Part shown: positions 3,441 to 11,799 of the stretch, one piece after another
How positions within the stretch are numbered: position 1 is the first letter of the stretch
Layout of the letters: each line of letters opens with the position of its first letter
Sequence record: OR067834.1
Origin: Escherichia phage KKP 3715
Direction: 5' to 3' (one strand)
DNA: 64,000 bases
Translations under genes and position numbers: made by a program
The notes under the pieces: model-generated
What the model was told of the DNA's origin: nothing
What the model saw: only the letters and a program-made list of their open reading frames with translations
The model's database searches: none

Positions 3441-5016
3441 GTTAATTAAACAGGAACTGGATGAATGGCTGGACCAGGTGGATTACTCTAATTCATCAAA
3501 CTATGTTCCTAGTCAGTTTGCTCTTACCTTTGCCAACTTTATTAAGTTGGTTAATGGCAAAGAAGGTGAATCCAACAAAACACCCCCGGTTCACCTGAAG
3601 ATGTTGGATAAGATGATTACCCCGAACCAGTATGTAGTTAACCTGTGTTTCCGTGGTGCAGGTAAGACTGCTGTGTTCATGGAATACTTTACTTTGTTCC
3701 TGGCAGTGTTTGGTCACTTACCTAGTTTAGGTAAGGTAGAAGGAATGATCTACGTATCTGACTCAATGGATAACGGTGCTAAGTCTGCACGTAAGAACAT
3801 TGAGTTCCGATACAAGAATAGTGAGTTCCTTCGGCAGTGGATACCTGAAGCTACTTTTACAGATAACCTGTTAGAGTTTCGCAATGCAGAAGGGCATCGA
3901 CTAGGTGTTAAGTTGTTTGGTGCTAAGACTGGTCTTCGTGGTACGAAGATATATGGTAAGCGTCCAACACTTTGTGTACTGGATGACTTGATTAGTGATG
4001 GTGATGCTAACTCTAAGACCAGCATGGAAGCTATTAAGGATACTGTCTATAAAGGTGTGAACCATGCCCTTGACCCAACACGTCGTAAAGTAATCTTCAA
4101 CGGTACTCCTTTTAATAAGGAAGACATCATCATTGAAGCAGTAGAGTCCGGTGCATGGGATGTCAACGTATGGCCCGTGTGTGAGAAGTTCCCATGTAGT
4201 AGGGAAGAGTTTCAGGGTGCATGGGATGACCGTTTCTCATATGACTACATCAAAGCCCAATACGACATGGCAGTTAAGACTGGTAAGCTGGCTGGTTTCT
4301 ACCAGGAACTTATGCTTCGTATTAGTTCTGAAGATGAACGTCTTGTTCAGGATAGTGAGATTAAATGGTATAGCAGGCAGCAACTGTTAAGGATGAAGTC
4401 CTGCTACAACTATTACATTACAACCGACTTTGCTACCTCGGAGAAACAGACCAGTGATTACAGTGTCATATCAGTTTGGGCTTATAGTTCTAATGGAGAT
4501 TGGTTCTGGGTTGACGGTGTGGCTAATCGCCAGCTTATGGATAAAAACTTTGACGACTTGTTCCGTCTGGTTCAGGAATACCAACCACAAAACGTTGGTG
4601 TCGAAATTACAGGACAGCAAGGTGGATTCATTTCACTCCTTCAGAAAGAAATGATTAACCGAAATGTCTTCTTTAACTTTGCATCCTCTGAGGGTGGTAA
4701 GCCTGGCATCCGTCCTGTAACCTCTAAGCTGTCACGCTTTAACCTGGTAGTTCCGTGGTTCAAAGCTGGTAAGATGTACTTCCCGGAAGAGTTGAGAGAT
4801 ACAACTATTATGGGTCTGTTCATGGGCCAGATTAAACTAGCTACCATTAATGGGATTAAAGGTAAGGATGACTGTATTGATACTATCTCCATGCTGGGTT
4901 ATCTCAATCCTTGGAAACCACAAGCAGGGATGACTTTGGTGGATAACAAGGGTGACCCGATGTGGGATGAGGAAGAAGAAGATAGTGTTAACCCACTACG
5001 TTCATACATTGTGTGA
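3412..5016 (+). CDS. terL: terminase large subunit
   Basis: 534 aa; Walker A-like CFRGAGKTAV and Walker B-like LCVLDDLISD in the N-terminal ATPase region; size and position match N4-like terminase. Confidence 0.9.
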   Translation: MQMRTLQMSELIKQELDEWLDQVDYSNSSNYVPSQFALTFANFIKLVNGKEGESNKTPPVHLKMLDKMITPNQYVVNLCFRGAGKTAVFMEYFTLFLAVFGHLPSLGKVEGMIYVSDSMDNGAKSARKNIEFRYKNSEFLRQWIPEATFTDNLLEFRNAEGHRLGVKLFGAKTGLRGTKIYGKRPTLCVLDDLISDGDANSKTSMEAIKDTVYKGVNHALDPTRRKVIFNGTPFNKEDIIIEAVESGAWDVNVWPVCEKFPCSREEFQGAWDDRFSYDYIKAQYDMAVKTGKLAGFYQELMLRISSEDERLVQDSEIKWYSRQQLLRMKSCYNYYITTDFATSEKQTSDYSVISVWAYSSNGDWFWVDGVANRQLMDKNFDDLFRLVQEYQPQNVGVEITGQQGGFISLLQKEMINRNVFFNFASSEGGKPGIRPVTSKLSRFNLVVPWFKAGKMYFPEELRDTTIMGLFMGQIKLATINGIKGKDDCIDTISMLGYLNPWKPQAGMTLVDNKGDPMWDEEEEDSVNPLRSYIV

Positions 5017-5022
5017 GGAACC

Positions 5023-5187
5023 ATGCAGAAACTATCGGAAGTATACCGTGGCTTGGCACTAAGTACCTTGAAGGGTACTGGCTCAGTCACGGATGACAGA
5101 CTAGGTATTGAACCAGATAGTAAGCCGGAGATACTAGCTGCTATTAATGAAGGACTGGTACGACTGCATAGTCGTTTCCCCCCTTAA
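5023..5187 (+). CDS. small ORF (54 aa); may be the N-terminal part of the next gene via +1 frameshift, or an independent small gene
   Basis: ATG 5023 with GAGGAA Shine-Dalgarno 4 nt upstream; ends at TAA 5185-5187 just after a C6 run (5178-5183). Not in the ORF track. Confidence 0.3.
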   Translation: MQKLSEVYRGLALSTLKGTGSVTDDRLGIEPDSKPEILAAINEGLVRLHSRFPP

Positions 5188-5734
5188 GACAAATAGCTGC
5201 ATTGTGGAGATGAAGGAAGGACGTACTGATTATCCCCTTCAATCCAAATATGCTTACTCCAGATTTACTAAGCCTACTCTTGAGGTTCAGTATCCATATA
5301 TCATGGATGGCTTCATGAAGCCTTTCCAGGATGACGTTATTAAAATCTTAAATGTGTTTGATAACTCTGGGAATCGACGTAGACTGAACGACGACTCAGA
5401 CCCTCATGCTATTTTCACCCCACGGCCTGATACTATTCAGTGTATGCGACCTCGACACTTCGAGGCACTTAACGTAACGTATCAAGCTAAGCACCCAGTA
5501 CTTACGGGTGATGAAGAACAGGAAGTTGATTTAGCTGATACGTTAATGACGGCACTTCATAACTGGGTGGGTTATCGTTACCACACTGGTTTGAATACTC
5601 CTGAAGCTAACGCTAAAGCAGCAGAGTATCTGCAAACGTATGAAAGCATCTGTGGTGAGGTTGTTGATTACGACCTGGCTAATGGAAGTATTTCAATTAC
5701 CGAAACTAAATTTGAACAACGAGGATGGCGATGA
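5147..5734 (+). CDS. hypothetical virion protein
   Basis: 195-aa ORF; its frame is open from 5138; weak RBS at the 5147 ATG. Confidence 0.6.
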   Translation: MKDWYDCIVVSPLKTNSCIVEMKEGRTDYPLQSKYAYSRFTKPTLEVQYPYIMDGFMKPFQDDVIKILNVFDNSGNRRRLNDDSDPHAIFTPRPDTIQCMRPRHFEALNVTYQAKHPVLTGDEEQEVDLADTLMTALHNWVGYRYHTGLNTPEANAKAAEYLQTYESICGEVVDYDLANGSISITETKFEQRGWR

Positions 5735-8457
5735 ACGCACATACCCCCTTCGATGCAAATCAGGATTGGACCAATCCTTACTGCCAGAACAGTTCCAATG
5801 ACCCAATGGTAGATGCACTACTTGGTAATGCTTACCACGTGGTTCGTACTGTCTACTGTAACCTGGGGAATCTCAAACTTATTTATGATTTCCTGAATAA
5901 ATATGGAATGGTACTAGGTGTTCAATCAGAAGCTGAACTGAAGGCCATGCCTACCAGTGCATCCTATGTACGTCTGTATGGTTTTGATAATACCAATAAA
6001 CGAGTCGTCACAGACTACCTGTATGTAGATGGTGACCGTACAGGTGTAATTCCGGATGACCCGTCTGCTACTGGTTCCTGGATTTTGGTTGCCACTTCTA
6101 ATTCAGGCAGTGGTGAAGATGGTGGTGATGGTAAAGCATCCACCCCATACATCCCATATACGTATAACAATGGTTTCTGCTATTGGGGGGAAACTACTAT
6201 CCCAGTGCCTGTTGGTACGGTTGGTGTACCGATGATTGTAGTTGAGGGCTATACCAACTTAGTTGGTTATGGTTTTACTTATGATGCAACTTCGCTAACT
6301 GTTACTCTGGCTCAACCATTGGAACCTGGTGATGAAGTTCATCTGTTCCTGACCGGTACTCCTGCTGTTCCAGATAATCCTAACGTAACTGACTGGGTTC
6401 AGATTAACTGGTTGTACAATGGTGGGTATGCTGTAGGTGGTGAGCAAGTAATTGTTATTCCTTATACGTTTGAATCTGTACCAGCCATCTACAAGAATGG
6501 CGAACGCTACTATGCAGGTTTGGCTGATAAATCTTATACAGTCGATGCAGCTAACCAGCGTATTCTTTTAACGGAACCTCTGGCTACCAACGACCGTCTG
6601 ATTGTAACTATTGGAGGTGAATCTACTACCCTGATTATGACAGACCGTACTGTTCAGGAAGTAGCACGTTCAGCTAATGTTAAGGATTCAGAGGTTATTC
6701 TGAGCACCAATACTACTCAGTATCTCAATGGTATGAAGGTTGTATTTGATGTTGTAGCGCAGAAGATTTACGGTCTTCCTGCATTACCAACTAACGTCTA
6801 CATCAACACTGTTTCTAATGGGCAATTAACTTATTCCCCGGGTAACATTACAGTTGATTTGCTGCCTGTATCAAATGAATACACTGATGTACTACGCACC
6901 GAACTAGCTGCCGAAACTGGTTCAGAATTGGTTACCTATAAATCTGCATTAAGTGGTGCTATTGCACGTAGCATTCACGAACGTCTTTCTGACTACGTAA
7001 GTGTTAAAGACTTTGGTGCAATTGGTGATGGGATTGCCAATGATGGGCCTGCCATCAATGCTGCATTCTTGGCAGCTAAAAAAGTATTTTTCCCAGCAGG
7101 TACTTACTACCATACCCAAGTAATTAACTTACAAGATGGTCTTACTGTTGACCTTCGTGGGGCAAAGATTAAACCAGCAGATACTATCTTGACTGCTGCT
7201 TGGGTAGGCAACAACCTCAATGATTTACATATTGTCGGCGGATTCTTTGAAGGTGCTGGGTTAGATAATACCTCTGGTAATGGTCAGTTGATGACCCTCA
7301 GTAATTGTGTTCGAGCAAAAGTTGAAGGTACTCATTTCACTAAATCACCGAATGATGGTATTCGTTTAGTTGGCTGTTCCTACTCTAGTGTTCTGGATGT
7401 ACATGCTTACAATAACTTGAGTGTTGGTGTACAAGACAGGGATGGGTTATCTAACTTAATTCATGGTTGCTACTGCAATTACAATGGCGATACAGGTACA
7501 GTTAGTAATACTGGTGGGCGTGGTATTCTTCTTTGGAGAACCAAGAAGTCACTGGTATCTGATTGTTACACCTATAACAATACGGAGTACGGTTTCCGTA
7601 ACTATTCTCAGACTGGTGATGCTAGTGCATCATATCAAAACGTTGTGACTAATCTCCGTTCCGGGGACAACCTTAAAATTGATGTCTATTCTTATAATGA
7701 AGAAGGCAGCATGGCTGAGATTGTATTTAGTAACTGTACTGTACGCAGAACAACGCAGCCTCAGGGTACTTGTGTATCTATTCAGGGTAAAAATACTAAT
7801 TACATTGGGGGCACTATTAAGAAAGAGGGTGACCGTCTTACTGTACCAGTGTTTTCTATTTATCAGACGACTCGTGCTTCTGTACGAAATGTCACTATTG
7901 ATAACGCTGGTCAACTTATTAGTTTGTCTTCTGATGTGGCTACTCAGTTGTCAGGGTTAGTAGCTGAATGCTCTACCATTAGTAATGGGGGCAATGCTAC
8001 TTACACAAACTGTTACTTTACCCATGGTGGTTCTGGTACTACAGATATTGGTATTGATGCAGGTACTGTGTCTACCCCAGTCATTCAAGCTTGCACCTTT
8101 GATGGGTTTTATCGTTGTGTATCGTGGACAGCACAGAAAATGGTATTGGTTAATAACGTTAGTATTAATACTACTGATGTATCCCTTCGTATGTTTGGGG
8201 ATGGTATTGCTAACTATTGGGCATCTGGTAACTGCTGGGATAAAGAAGGTAATCCGGATGTTATTAGTAATTTTACCAAACAAGGTGGACCAACTGCTAA
8301 ACCAGTTATTTATGTTAACAACGCAGCACCTACTACTCTTACGTGGCCTGTAGGTGCTATTGCAATTAACAAGACACCTGTGGTTGGGCAACCTAAAGAT
8401 TGGCGTTGTACTGTAGCGGGAACCCCCGGTACATGGGTTTCTGGTGGTAATCTGTAA
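5725..8457 (+). CDS. tailspike protein with pectate-lyase-like beta-helix (putative depolymerase)
   Basis: 910 aa; VKDFGAIGDGIANDGPAINAAF motif typical of phage beta-helix depolymerases; N-terminal ~310 aa plausibly the particle-binding part. Confidence 0.8.
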   Translation: MAMNAHTPFDANQDWTNPYCQNSSNDPMVDALLGNAYHVVRTVYCNLGNLKLIYDFLNKYGMVLGVQSEAELKAMPTSASYVRLYGFDNTNKRVVTDYLYVDGDRTGVIPDDPSATGSWILVATSNSGSGEDGGDGKASTPYIPYTYNNGFCYWGETTIPVPVGTVGVPMIVVEGYTNLVGYGFTYDATSLTVTLAQPLEPGDEVHLFLTGTPAVPDNPNVTDWVQINWLYNGGYAVGGEQVIVIPYTFESVPAIYKNGERYYAGLADKSYTVDAANQRILLTEPLATNDRLIVTIGGESTTLIMTDRTVQEVARSANVKDSEVILSTNTTQYLNGMKVVFDVVAQKIYGLPALPTNVYINTVSNGQLTYSPGNITVDLLPVSNEYTDVLRTELAAETGSELVTYKSALSGAIARSIHERLSDYVSVKDFGAIGDGIANDGPAINAAFLAAKKVFFPAGTYYHTQVINLQDGLTVDLRGAKIKPADTILTAAWVGNNLNDLHIVGGFFEGAGLDNTSGNGQLMTLSNCVRAKVEGTHFTKSPNDGIRLVGCSYSSVLDVHAYNNLSVGVQDRDGLSNLIHGCYCNYNGDTGTVSNTGGRGILLWRTKKSLVSDCYTYNNTEYGFRNYSQTGDASASYQNVVTNLRSGDNLKIDVYSYNEEGSMAEIVFSNCTVRRTTQPQGTCVSIQGKNTNYIGGTIKKEGDRLTVPVFSIYQTTRASVRNVTIDNAGQLISLSSDVATQLSGLVAECSTISNGGNATYTNCYFTHGGSGTTDIGIDAGTVSTPVIQACTFDGFYRCVSWTAQKMVLVNNVSINTTDVSLRMFGDGIANYWASGNCWDKEGNPDVISNFTKQGGPTAKPVIYVNNAAPTTLTWPVGAIAINKTPVVGQPKDWRCTVAGTPGTWVSGGNL

Positions 8458-8463
8458 TACTTA

Positions 8464-8481
8464 GCCCCTCTTTGGAGGGGC
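8464..8481 (+). terminator. hairpin GCCCCTC-TTTG-GAGGGGC after tailspike 1 (weak U-tract)
   Basis: Read from sequence; followed by ATTACTT. Confidence 0.35.
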
Positions 8482-8507
8482 ATTACTTAGAATAAAACGA
8501 GGTATAT

Positions 8508-10496
8508 ATGAAAGACATGTTTGCTCAAGGTGGTTCTGGTTCTGCTGGAATCAAGACCAATAAACAAGCAATTGCTCGTGCTTGTAACGTTAAAGTAAGT
8601 GAAGTCATTTATAGCAATGACACCATCACTACTCTTGATGGTAAAAAGGTTATCTATGATAAACCTAATCAGTATATCTGGGGCTTACCTTCTGGTATCC
8701 CATCTGGGGCTACCGTTGTAACTGTGACTGGGGCTACTCTGGTTTATAACCCTGGCAATATCTCAGTTACATTGGAATTAGTTCCTAATTCTTCTGTTAA
8801 CCAATTAAAACAAGATTTACTATCTTCAAACGGTTTTTCTTTAGTTGGTGGAATTAGGGGTATTGTTAAAACCTCTGAAGTAGCTAACTTAGAAGATGCT
8901 ATTACGTTAGCATTAGAAAATGATGCTGATGTTCTAGTAGATAATATTCAGAACATTACAGTACCAATCCGTAAATCCTTGAATGGAAAAGATATTAAAA
9001 TAATTTCTACACCTAGTGGTTGGATTAACTTTACCCCAACGGATGCTAACACTTACTATCAGGTTCTGACTTTTGACGGAACTGGGGTGGAAAGCGTAAC
9101 CACTAAAGTGAAGATAGATGGTGGTAAAGTTCGCGGCGTAGGTCGGGCTGTTGTAGGGATTACGGTAAATAACGTTTACGCACATTATGAAAGCTCAGAG
9201 ATGAGGAACATCAGCGCATGTGTAAACACAGTTACCGCCCAGATTCACCTGTGTTATGGGGCTAAATATTATAACGTATTTCAACAACTTGCTTCTCAAG
9301 ACTGGAGTGCTGGAGTGTATGGCTATGGTACTGTACCAATTGATTGTGAAACTGTATTAGTAGAAGCCAATACATTTGGTTTGTCCGGTCAACCATTAGA
9401 CCGTCATGCAGTTTATTGTTCTAGTCAAGCTGATGGAACAGGTGTAGTTCGTAATGCATTTGTCTGTAATAACACAGCAGTAATGCGTGACTACACCACG
9501 GAAACAGCAGAGACAACAAGTGAACGCTGCTTTAAATTCATTGGTACAAACCGGGTACATCTTCACCATAATACATTACGTGGGGGATATGGGTTCTGTC
9601 TGATAACACTTCATAAATTCCAAACCATGGAAAACATCCGCATCGATAACAATAGAGCAAGAACTTACGCAAGCGGAATTATTATCGCAGGACAGAACGA
9701 AGCCTCGGCAGAACCTGATGCAACATGGTACGTTGATGAATTACAGATGGCTAATAACCATTTCCGTATGAGAGCTACGGTAGCTGGAACAAGTAATGGG
9801 GCTGAGTGGCGCAACACGTATCGTGTTAGTGACGTTGGCAGTTCGTATGTAAACGAGGCATTTGCAACGGTGAATGCGTTAACTGTTTACTACCCAAAAA
9901 CAGACCGCATACGAACTGAGAGTTTCCGTTCCGAATCTTGCTACTATCAAGGGTTCCAAAATATCACCCGAGAAATGGCCCCCACTTACACCTATATAGA
10001 TATTACATGCCGTAATGCTGTTAACACTCAGAATCCCCTGAATGCATCCGGCGCTACTGTCCAGAATGTAAAAGTACGGAGTCTTGATAACACGGCGATG
10101 TGGAAGGATTACACGGCTACCGCAATTGTAGGGTTCTCATACTACGACCCTAGCTTTCTTAAATTCATAAGATGTGCAGGAGCTGGATTGTGGGAAGATG
10201 AAGATGGGTATCCAGTAGTTGGATTATCTACTGGCAGGCCCACTAGACTTCGTGAAGGTCTTAAATTCTACCAAACAGATTTAGCCACAATGATTACTTG
10301 GACCGGTTCTAACTGGGTTCTCCAGTCAGCAGGATATACTGGGATAATTAAATCAGGAACAACTCCACAAATAAACTCTGTGAACAAGGCATTACTTGGT
10401 TATGGACATGTTATATATAACACCGACACCAAAAAACCGGCTTTCTTTGATCAATTAGCTCAGTCATGGAAGTACGCAGACGGTAGCGCAATGTAA
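8508..10496 (+). CDS. second tailspike / tail fibre protein
   Basis: 662 aa; N-terminal residues ~20-96 are clearly homologous to residues ~313-386 of tailspike 1; remainder assigned as beta-helix-like from composition only. Confidence 0.75.
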   Translation: MKDMFAQGGSGSAGIKTNKQAIARACNVKVSEVIYSNDTITTLDGKKVIYDKPNQYIWGLPSGIPSGATVVTVTGATLVYNPGNISVTLELVPNSSVNQLKQDLLSSNGFSLVGGIRGIVKTSEVANLEDAITLALENDADVLVDNIQNITVPIRKSLNGKDIKIISTPSGWINFTPTDANTYYQVLTFDGTGVESVTTKVKIDGGKVRGVGRAVVGITVNNVYAHYESSEMRNISACVNTVTAQIHLCYGAKYYNVFQQLASQDWSAGVYGYGTVPIDCETVLVEANTFGLSGQPLDRHAVYCSSQADGTGVVRNAFVCNNTAVMRDYTTETAETTSERCFKFIGTNRVHLHHNTLRGGYGFCLITLHKFQTMENIRIDNNRARTYASGIIIAGQNEASAEPDATWYVDELQMANNHFRMRATVAGTSNGAEWRNTYRVSDVGSSYVNEAFATVNALTVYYPKTDRIRTESFRSESCYYQGFQNITREMAPTYTYIDITCRNAVNTQNPLNASGATVQNVKVRSLDNTAMWKDYTATAIVGFSYYDPSFLKFIRCAGAGLWEDEDGYPVVGLSTGRPTRLREGLKFYQTDLATMITWTGSNWVLQSAGYTGIIKSGTTPQINSVNKALLGYGHVIYNTDTKKPAFFDQLAQSWKYADGSAM

Positions 10497-10502
10497 AACT
10501 AA

Positions 10503-10524
10503 CCCCGCTCAGGCGGGGTTTTTT
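10503..10524 (+). terminator. intrinsic terminator (CCCCGC-TCAG-GCGGGG then TTTTTT)
   Basis: GC-rich stem and T6 tract directly after the tailspike 2 stop. Confidence 0.75.
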
Positions 10525-10527
10525 GTT

Positions 10528-10929
10528 GTGCCACAAACAAATCATTGGGTAGACTGTTTCAGTCAATTACGACTTAACCAACCTGAGAAAGTCCCTATGG
10601 GAAATGAACCAGATAACGTAACTCTAGCCAGACTCGAAGAGAGACTGAGAAACATTTTCGAAAACCAAACCCGTGAATCGAGGGAAAGGGAGAAAATGGA
10701 AGAGTCTATTAAAAAGCTAAGTGAGTCTATGGGCGACCTTAGTACCCGACTTAAACGGGTAGAAGAGAGCATCACTAAGTCTGAACCTACCATCGAAGAG
10801 TTCATCACTATTAAACATAAGGTTGCTGGTGCTGGAATTTTTGGTAAGTGGGTGTGGGCTGGAGCAGGTGCAATCATTGGTGTATTGGCTGCTGCAAGAC
10901 GGGAGATATTCGCATGGTTTGCAGGCTAA
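10528..10929 (+). CDS. membrane-anchored coiled-coil protein (C-terminal TM); possible lysis regulator
   Basis: 133 aa; charged helical N-terminus, C-terminal hydrophobic GAGIFGKWVWAGAGAIIGVLAA; likely starts at an internal Met (MGNEPDN). Confidence 0.5.
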   Translation: MPQTNHWVDCFSQLRLNQPEKVPMGNEPDNVTLARLEERLRNIFENQTRESREREKMEESIKKLSESMGDLSTRLKRVEESITKSEPTIEEFITIKHKVAGAGIFGKWVWAGAGAIIGVLAAARREIFAWFAG

Positions 10930-11174: not shown

Positions 11175-11799
11175 ACAGAAACTTGCTGCAAAAGGTGGTG
11201 CAGTGGGAGGAGTTGTCGCTGCTATTCTGGGGGCAGTGTTCTATATGGAAGGGGGGTACGTAAACAATCCTCGTGACCCAGGTGGGGAAACTAATCATGG
11301 TATTACTCAATCAGTAGCTAAGTCTCACAAAGAAGTTCTGGCTACTGAGTATGGTTGGGATGGTTCCATGAAGGGTTTATCTAAAGAGATGGCTGCTGAG
11401 ATATACATAGATGACTACGTACTTAAGCCTAACTTCGTAGCTTTCGCTGATATATCTCCTGCTGTAACACACAAACTGGTTGATGCTGGTGTTAACACAG
11501 GTGTAACCAGACCAGCTAAGTGGTTGCAGCAATCTCTTAATGAAATGTCCCGTGATGGCAAAGACTACCCTAAAATACAAGTTGATGGTAAAGTCGGTGC
11601 AGGTACTGTTAATGCATATAAAGCATTACAGAAAAAACGAGGCAAAGTTGCAGCATGTCAGGTAATGATTAAGTTACTTGATGCTAAACAACTGAACCAC
11701 TACACCTCATTGAACATGCCAGACTTTACGTATGGTTGGGTAGCTAACCGAATTGGTAATGTACCACTGGAGGCATGTAATGAAGATGCTAATCTCTAA
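11164..11799 (+). CDS. endolysin, GH108-type N-acetylmuramidase with C-terminal peptidoglycan-binding region; N-terminal signal-anchor-release-like segment
   Basis: 211 aa; GH108 signature EGGYVNNPRDPGGETNHGITQ; N-terminal Gly/Ala-rich weakly hydrophobic stretch GGAVGGVVAAILGAVFYM. Confidence 0.85.
   Translation: MKAKQKLAAKGGAVGGVVAAILGAVFYMEGGYVNNPRDPGGETNHGITQSVAKSHKEVLATEYGWDGSMKGLSKEMAAEIYIDDYVLKPNFVAFADISPAVTHKLVDAGVNTGVTRPAKWLQQSLNEMSRDGKDYPKIQVDGKVGAGTVNAYKALQKKRGKVAACQVMIKLLDAKQLNHYTSLNMPDFTYGWVANRIGNVPLEACNEDANL

Follow-up and report, generated by a model that had tools for sequence, protein, structure and literature searches.

A shared head module in two adjacent tailspikes of Escherichia phage KKP 3715, consistent with the branched receptor-binding apparatus of G7C-like podophages

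Escherichia phage KKP 3715 carries two adjacent, co-oriented tailspike genes in the 64,000-nucleotide (nt) stretch of record OR067834.1 that was analysed here and is referred to below as the window. They encode proteins of 910 amino acids (aa), spike 1, and 662 aa, spike 2, and an earlier, sequence-only reading of the window had pointed to a module of about 75 residues that occupies different positions in the two proteins. Both open reading frames (ORFs) are present as given there, the two quoted peptides are found, and the nucleotide ranges 6661-6883 and 8565-8796 encode residues 313-386 of spike 1 and 20-96 of spike 2. The two genes and their domains are as follows.

5725..8457, plus strand: spike 1, a gp66-type primary (branching) tailspike of 910 aa, assigned from structure matches, phrog_12242 and synteny with G7C gp66
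5725..6138, plus strand: N-terminal virion-anchor domain, aa 1-138, predicted from homology to gp66-type long spikes
6139..6399, plus strand: first T4 gp10-like domain (XD2), aa 139-225, from its similarity to the next domain and the alignment with tailspike protein (TSP) 2 of phage CBA120
6400..6636, plus strand: second gp10-like domain (XD3), probable docking platform of spike 2, aa 226-304, from similarity and a hidden Markov model (HMM)
6637..6882, plus strand: TD1/D1 head, internal copy of the shared module, aa 305-386, from alignment, HMM and AlphaFold (one helix, six strands)
6883..6990, plus strand: neck helix and flexible linker, aa 387-422 (helix at aa 388-395, then a low-confidence linker)
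6991..8454, plus strand: right-handed beta-helix, receptor-binding and putative depolymerase domain, aa 423-910, from Pfam, AlphaFold and Foldseek
8508..10496, plus strand: spike 2, a gp63.1/TSP1-type secondary tailspike of 662 aa, assigned from structure matches and synteny with G7C gene 63.1
8508..8579, plus strand: conserved Gamaleyavirus N-terminal peptide and start of the first TD1 helix, aa 1-24, from identity to short spikes
8580..8792, plus strand: TD1/D1 core, N-terminal copy of the module, clade B (gp66/TSP4-like), aa 25-95, from identities and secondary structure
8793..8858, plus strand: neck helix and linker, without D2, aa 96-117 (helix at aa 96-104; low predicted local distance difference test score, pLDDT, at aa 92-116)
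8859..10493, plus strand: right-handed beta-helix, receptor-binding and putative depolymerase domain, aa 118-662, from AlphaFold (pLDDT >90) and Foldseek

The segment common to the two proteins covers aa 297-404 of spike 1 and aa 8-113 of spike 2. BLASTP aligns aa 297-439 of spike 1 with aa 8-149 of spike 2 with 35% of the residues identical (E=3e-17), identity rises to 44% (E=1.6e-19) when only the core is aligned (aa 311-390 of spike 1 and aa 20-100 of spike 2), and the Smith-Waterman score of 171 compares with 29 +/- 5.5 in 1000 shuffles (maximum 60, z=26), which bears out the close alignment first noticed by eye. The module is indeed shared, but its length had been set too short, since some 105 residues can be aligned as homologous (identity 42% in amino acids, 49% in nucleotides), the additional length being made up of a short upstream 'GG...' segment and the downstream neck helix; the shared domain itself, of about 85 residues, is real. 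In both spikes the segment lies 5' of the beta-helix, as indicated by the Pfam beta-helix matches of spike 1 (aa 424-628) and by the AlphaFold models, and it is therefore not a generic beta-helix repeat. The models of the two module copies, compared by the order of secondary structure and by their common matches to solved D1 domains, display the same succession of one helix, six strands and a neck helix, followed in each protein by a confidently predicted beta-helix. A resemblance due to chance, or to a generic beta-helix or low-complexity repeat of tailspikes, might still be considered, as both proteins contain long beta-helices, the rungs of which often yield weak spurious matches (compare the many high-scoring segment pairs with E>0.5). 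However, the significance of the alignment and of the shuffling test, the position of the segment ahead of the helices, and the fact that each copy independently matches solved D1 domains leave a negligible probability for this explanation, which the alignment statistics and the D1 matches already refute. Comparison of the module with the two tandem gp10-like domains of spike 1 gave no significant similarity, and a kinship with these XD domains was accordingly rejected.

Judged by sequence matches and domain limits, the shared module is the head domain of branched tailspike complexes that has been published as TD1 in the Leiman nomenclature and as D1 in the Herzberg nomenclature. Residues 293-380 of spike 1 match the TD1 region of Shigella phage B2 gp49 and of Moo19 gp82, and residues 1-88 of spike 2 match B2 gp48 (9d84_A, E=2.5e-17), CBA120 TSP1 (4oj5, E=6.4e-17) and G7C gp63.1 (4qnl, E=8.3e-16). 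The D1 boundaries in solved structures are residues 12-96 in TSP1, 12-95 in TSP3, 13-96 in gp63.1, 166-247 in TSP2 and 340-421 in TSP4 (PMC7506556), and the copies in the window agree with these, lying at about aa 14-96 in spike 2 and aa 305-386 in spike 1. An HMM built from the two window copies places the module near aa 14 of all the short spikes examined, at 174 in TSP2-like, at 300-305 in gp66-like and at 343 in TSP4-like proteins. Searched against 1.84 billion representatives, it retrieved 342 proteins at E<=1e-3; among the best 150 of these 342, the module starts at residues 13-26 (9 proteins), 168-174 (29), 279-309 (84) or 341-345 (22), and the same classes recur in two Ackermannviridae-like four-spike clusters. 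These discrete start positions indicate that the occurrence of one module at different places in the protein follows a stereotyped plan that is widespread. Assignment of the module to Pfam PF18668, 'Tail_spike_N', was considered and rejected, as this family is the second head domain, D2 (residues 91-153 of gp63.1 and 400-454 of gp66).

Spike 1 is built as a long spike. Its residues 1-418 are co-linear with Moo19 gp82 (PDB 9d80_D, E=3.4e-142), its N-terminal part matches B2 gp49 (9d83_D, E=4e-132), and the protein matches phrog_12242, 'tail protein' (E=1.8e-259). On internal comparison, the first 400 residues resolve into the anchor at aa 1-138, a pair of mutually similar domains at aa 139-225 and aa 226-304, and the module at aa 305-395; the extra N-terminal region that had been recognised ahead of the module is thus confirmed, at about 304 residues, as the anchor plus the two gp10-like domains. 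The anchor is 96% identical to that of phage PD205, 94% to that of HK2 and 77% to that of G7C gp66, with residues 3-78 also matching PDB 9lc0_A, '60 kDa protein', and phrog_29955, 'appendage'; by analogy with G7C gp66 (PMC8825819), it would attach the protein to the virion. The two following domains are 31% identical to each other (E=8.5e-9) and are of the type described as T4 gp10-like XD2 and XD3 (PMC8825819). Together with TD1 they align with residues 15-256 of CBA120 TSP2 (6w4q_A), while an XD-domain HMM derived from the tandem pair matches gp66 at residues 136-220 and 222-299 and the XD3 of TSP4-like proteins. The 7rej/7rfo chains (341 aa, 'Tailspike protein') are presumably CBA120 TSP4-N. 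XD3 of spike 1 is 87-95% identical to the XD3 of PD205 and HK2, and two tandem XD-type domains before TD1 were found in long spikes only.

Downstream of TD1, the linker of spike 1 is modelled with pLDDT <50 (residues 87-126 of the AlphaFold model), and the neck motif PVSNEYTDxLRxxLAxxxGxxLV is common to L004_618 and L005_998, proteins of two metagenomic contigs described below. The body is a predicted beta-helix (pLDDT ~85-90) that scores above the Pfam cut-offs for PF12708 (37.4 bits, cut-off 27, E=3.1e-9) and PF13229 (35.8 bits, cut-off 25.9), and its best Foldseek matches are CBA120 TSP2 and TSP3, followed by HK620, phi29 gp12 and PfbA. The pectate-lyase-like motif that had been suspected in this protein is therefore present in the sense of a PF12708 match, which names a fold and not lyase chemistry; depolymerase activity would follow by homology. 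The conserved acidic positions D573, E621, D632 and D653 have a putative catalytic role. The closest relative of the body in a deposited phage, the JulesPiccard lateral tail fiber, is 44% identical. The last ~149 residues (aa 762-910, nt 8008-8454) share 87% identity with proteins of the Limestonevirus-type Dickeya phages RC-2014, phiDP10.3 and phiDP23.1, and this value, set against at most 44% elsewhere in the body, suggests a separately mobile C-terminal sub-domain.

A second copy of the locus is available in the 59-kb Logan contig L003 (SRR24296945_0), which represents the same phage with 0 substitutions and four indels over 10 kb. A 1-nt deletion at position 6174 breaks its spike 1 into products of 167 and 741 aa, whereas the copy in the window is intact. 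The 741-aa protein P0067 had been entertained as a different N-terminal architecture and was rejected as such, being the same spike 1 gene in L003 with the 1-nt deletion.

Spike 2 has the organisation of a short spike. The module HMM aligns to its residues 14-105, which places the TD1 head at the extreme N-terminus, and no anchor-like domain was found among its PHROG and PDB structure matches. Over residues 1-24, identity amounts to 100% with the short spike of PD205, to 96% with that of L008, a 70-kb Gamaleyavirus-like metagenomic contig, and to 75-79% with those of G7C and HK2. The AlphaFold model (pLDDT 86) consists of a helix at aa 19-25, six strands within aa 33-88, a neck helix at aa 96-104, a linker and a beta-helix. 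This beta-helix is recognisable by fold only, the best Foldseek matches being CBA120 TSP2, TSP3 and TSP1, followed by HK620, Det7, P22, 9NA and GH28 polygalacturonases; its conserved acidic positions D298, D309, E332, E335 and E339 are putatively catalytic. The closest body in a deposited phage (Phagiculus) is 52% identical, and no head above ~58% identity was found in deposited phages. Heads of the spike 2 type are nevertheless present in several ~70-kb metagenomic contigs.

Two clades can be distinguished among TD1 domains. To clade A belong gp63.1, TSP1-like proteins and the short spike of PD205, in which D2 follows, and clade B comprises gp66-, TSP4- and TSP2-like proteins together with D1-only short spikes. 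The canonical short-spike cores of gp63.1, TSP1 and PD205 are about 60-80% identical among themselves, and the core of spike 2 lies outside this group: it is only 37% identical to the gp63.1 and PD205 short-spike cores, compared with 59-60% to TSP4-like proteins, 52% to G7C gp66 and 46% to its own neighbour, spike 1. This clade-B core explains why the resemblance of the two spikes can be seen by eye in this genome, as the long and short TD1 cores are 46% identical here, 38% in G7C and 33% in PD205. The same numbers, and the fact that the genes are adjacent and co-oriented, could also speak for a recent duplication or gene conversion within this genome. Against such an origin, the copies are only 42% identical in amino acids and 49% in nucleotides, and nucleotide comparison of the two found no near-identical tract. 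Furthermore, each copy has closer kin in other phages than in its neighbour: the TD1 of spike 1 shares 90% identity with that of PD205, and the TD1 of spike 2 shares 89% with that of L008 and 59-60% with TSP4-like proteins. The acquisition of a clade-B TD1 by spike 2 from elsewhere accounts for the higher similarity of the two cores in this genome. A recent intragenomic event is thus very improbable, and it was rejected on the 49% nucleotide identity.

The phage itself groups by sequence and gene order with the genus Gamaleyavirus (G7C-like, Schitoviridae). Except for the spike bodies, the window is ~95% identical at the nucleotide level to Gamaleyaviruses such as E20, PhAPEC7 and SP5M, and its genes are ordered as in G7C: gp69, terminase gp68, virion protein gp67, gp66, gp63.1, gp63, holin, endolysin, spanins and portal. 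The gene of spike 1 has the gene of the gp67-like virion protein on one side and that of the short spike on the other, as gp66 does. The suggestion that the phage is a G7C-like relative of N4 is well founded on this identity and on the gp68-gp67-gp66-gp63.1-gp63 order.

Taken together, we estimate at roughly 85% the probability that the two genes of the window specify a branched receptor-binding apparatus of two components, of the kind typical of G7C-like podophages. Homology, synteny, the order of the domains, the fold predictions and the junctions of exchange come directly from the present analysis; trimer formation, docking of spike 2 on XD3, virion attachment and enzymatic activity are inferred from experiments on G7C, CBA120 and B2. 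The primary protein, spike 1, would comprise the anchor, XD2, XD3, the TD1 head, the neck helix and a beta-helix body, whereas the secondary protein, spike 2, would begin with its 24-residue peptide and TD1 head, followed by the neck and a beta-helix of its own. TD1 would represent the first domain of the 'spike proper', which in the long protein lies covalently behind the assembly domains. Homologues suggest that trimers of spike 1 would be attached to the tail through aa 1-138, that the TD1 trimer of spike 2 would dock by its N-terminal face, non-covalently, on the XD3 trimer of spike 1, and that each beta-helix would recognise, and probably cleave, an O-antigen or capsule. Docking of the short spike on the long one would provide one virion attachment site with two different trimers that recognise, and probably cleave, polysaccharides. 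The branched two-spike apparatus that had been proposed for this locus therefore matches the published model for G7C, CBA120 and B2 (PMC8825819, PMC11414711, PMC11654681).

Some observations weigh against this interpretation. The interaction of spike 2 with spike 1 is read across from homologues, not directly from these two proteins, and the catalytic residues of both spikes are putative assignments. A Pfam scan of spike 2 matched no family, and hence no recognisable catalytic family. Both heads lack D2, unlike those of gp66 and gp63.1: neither spike matches PF18668 even at E<=10, while gp63.1, gp66 and two relatives of spike 2, P0001 and P0003, score 54-85 bits. However, CBA120 TSP2 is known to have a D1-only head (PMC7506556), a precedent that makes D2 dispensable for this architecture. 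Finally, the core of spike 2, given its low identity to gp63.1, could dock in a different geometry.

The docking site deserves separate consideration. All four Ackermannviridae TSPs carry TD domains, TD1 being the N-terminus of TSP1 and TSP3 (PMC11414711), and the TD1 of TSP1 and TSP3 binds the XD3 of TSP4 and TSP2 (PMC11414711, PMC8825819). B2 gp48 and gp49 co-purify as a complex (PMC11654681). In G7C, as PMC8825819 relates with reference to Prokhorov 2017, deletion mutants showed that binding of gp63.1 requires the XD3 of gp66, and ultracentrifugation data on TSP4 support binding of the TSP1 D1 head to the XD3 of TSP4 (PMC8825819). Spike 2 might instead dock elsewhere, through a homotypic TD1-TD1 contact on spike 1, on the partner-less XD2, or directly on the virion. 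The role of XD2 in gp66 has been stated to be unknown (PMC8825819), and the TD1 core of spike 2 has changed clade while XD3 is still 87-95% identical to that of phages with clade-A heads. Such a site is nonetheless unlikely, as the gp66 deletions and the TSP4 data place the contact on XD3, spike 2 lacks an anchor-like domain, and six-frame translation of the 64-kb window (the genome is ~72 kb, ~8 kb of it outside) contains no third ORF bearing a TD1 or XD domain.

With XD3 as the probable platform, an exchanged TD1 core on an unchanged XD3 implies that the core need not be the specificity determinant, and docking would proceed either through residues conserved in both clades or through the N-terminal peptide and the first helix. 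Only tentatively, and with some doubt, the docking determinant of Gamaleyavirus secondary spikes may be placed in the first ~24 residues alone (the disordered 'MKDMFAQGGSGSAGIKT' and the first turns of the TD1 helix) and not in the TD1 core. This proposal arises because the core has been replaced and D2 lost, yet the peptide is 100% identical to that of PD205 and XD3 is conserved. The N-terminal peptide of spike 2 (GGSGSAGIKTNKQAIAR) can also be aligned to the linker between XD3 and TD1 in spike 1 (GGESTTLIMTDRTVQEVAR), and short spikes may have arisen by fission, restoring in non-covalent form the XD3-TD1 junction that is covalent in the long protein. For TSP1, the contribution of the 13 N-terminal residues to binding is unknown, and TSP1 without these residues still bound (PMC8825819). 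If the proposal were true, any spike of the TD1 type could be grafted onto a G7C-like virion by means of a tag of 24 residues alone.

Comparison with related phages reveals how the bodies are exchanged. At the nucleotide level, the match to G7C, PD205, HK2 and pSb-1 extends from the terminase as far as codons 377-380 of spike 1, at the C-terminal edge of TD1, and returns only beyond the spike 2 stop codon; of the spike 2 region, nothing but the hairpin upstream of the gene and its first 23-24 codons is held in common with PD205, G7C and pSb-1. The exchange junctions thus fall exactly at the edges of TD1. Bodies of the spike 2 type are also carried by head-binding domains of the P22 type (PF09008), in proteins of E. 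coli prophages, and by PF18668 heads. P0001 and P0003 (721 aa) are 73-81% identical to spike 2 and have D1+D2 heads; they differ from it mainly by a clade-A TD1 and a D2 (PF18668) of ~59 residues, which points to head replacement on a constant receptor-binding domain. In ~155-kb Ackermannviridae-like contigs, the second slot of a four-tailspike cluster is occupied by P0069 (L004, 7966-9822), carrying a body 87% identical to that of spike 1, and by P0002 (L005, 10001-11980), carrying a body 79% identical to that of spike 2, and these two proteins have a nearly identical D1-only head. In L008 a long protein of 382 aa (3797-4945) consists of anchor, XD2, XD3 and TD1 and then stops just after TD1 (...PGNITVTLLPISII), resembling B2 gp49, and the short spike (787 aa) joins a clade-B head like that of spike 2 (96% and 89%) to an unrelated body. 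Since different bodies follow it in these relatives, the motif PGN[IV][TS]VxL at the end of TD1 is a recurrent exchange junction. Swapping of receptor-binding domains in modular fashion, as originally suggested, is therefore supported by the loss of nucleotide similarity at the module edge and by the same bodies on other adaptors: receptor-binding cassettes swap at the C-terminal edge of TD1 between phages, even between families. C-terminal swapping of gp66 and gp63.1 has already been described for G7C-like phages (bioRxiv 10.1101/542787).

Among the known systems, G7C gp66 and gp63.1 are the closest, with the same genus-level backbone and gene order, a long spike of anchor, XD2, XD3 and TD1, a short spike that begins with TD1, and an intergenic stem-loop. 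The differences are that both receptor-binding bodies are unrelated, gp63.1 being a GDSL esterase with G7C-specific domains, that the heads in the window lack D2, and that the TD1 core of spike 2 belongs to the other clade. TSP1-TSP4 of CBA120 and other Ackermannviridae share the gp10-like XD, TD1/D1, neck and beta-helix (PMC8825819, PMC7506556, PMC11414711), with TD1 N-terminal in TSP1 and TSP3 and internal in TSP2 and TSP4 and with the D1-only head of TSP2; TSP2, TSP3 and TSP1 are also the best fold matches of both models. In contrast, they form four spikes on a myovirus baseplate rather than two on a podovirus, use another anchor domain and include XD1, which is absent from both spikes of the window. 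In Shigella phage B2 (gp49/gp48) and in Moo19 (gp82; PDB 9d80-9d84; PMC11654681), the likeness extends over the N-terminal 380-418 residues of spike 1, and aa 1-88 of spike 2 match gp48. The gp48/gp49 complex has been purified and imaged; the B2 adaptor gp49 (410 aa) ends shortly after TD1, whereas spike 1 has its own beta-helix, and the spikes of B2 and Moo19 are esterases. More distantly, T4 gp10 is regarded as the origin of the XD-type jelly-roll platform domains that attach other trimers (PMC8825819). In the baseplate its trimeric domains 2 and 3 bind gp11 and gp12. T4 gp10 differs in having neither TD1 nor an enzymatic beta-helix.

Two further features flank the gene of spike 2.

8464..8481, plus strand: GC-rich intergenic hairpin between the spike genes, without a U-tract (-15.6 kcal/mol, z=-3.6)
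10501..10526, plus strand: intrinsic terminator after spike 2, with an 8-bp stem (10501-10520) of which six pairs are G-C, then a T run

The hairpin is the positional equivalent of the annotated repeat or stem-loop of G7C; this intergenic stem-loop is conserved in G7C-like phages, and a possible role in exchange has been discussed (bioRxiv 10.1101/542787). A hairpin without a U-tract between the genes and a canonical terminator 3' of spike 2 fit a two-gene cassette.

Several observations concern the neighbouring genes. Relative to L003, a 6-nt indel lies at position 3489, in the N-terminal region of the terminase, and a 1-nt deletion at position 11251 disrupts the endolysin of L003, that of the window being intact. 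The gp67-like protein (5023-5734) is represented by an ORF, 5147..5734, of only 195 aa, compared with 236 aa in G7C and L003; it is shortened by an extra C at 5178 relative to L003 and is otherwise identical, and the extra C is probably a homopolymer or assembly error and no real pseudogene. The 133-aa ORF at 10528-10929, which has a GTG start, is probably over-extended, leaving a ~100-nt intergenic region with the terminator, as PHROG and G7C gp63 matches begin at its residue 24 (ATG at 10597). The GC skew switches sign near 34 kb of the window, from positive upstream to negative downstream, and this switch at ~34000 presumably marks the point at which gene blocks change the direction in which they are transcribed, as is the case in N4-like genomes.

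To conclude, the interpretation offered by the sequence-only reading is supported but already known from G7C gp66/gp63.1, CBA120 TSP1-4 and B2 gp49/gp48, and an overall architecture of this kind is textbook knowledge for the phage group. The novelty is minor: each of the two receptor-binding domains is a new allele, with best deposited-phage matches of 44% and 52%, and the secondary spike has a D1-only head of clade B, a less common type, fused to the 24-residue peptide that is usual in Gamaleyavirus. As both alleles are absent from deposited phages, they probably represent a serotype specificity that is not yet in collections. The main value lies in annotation: the genes may confidently be named as those of the gp66-type (primary) and gp63.1-type (secondary) tailspikes of a Gamaleyavirus, and the map of their domain limits and junctions of exchange can serve in predicting host range and in engineering spike swaps. 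In addition, the chimeric head of spike 2 constitutes a natural experiment on the part played by the N-terminal residues of short spikes in docking, a question left open by PMC8825819.

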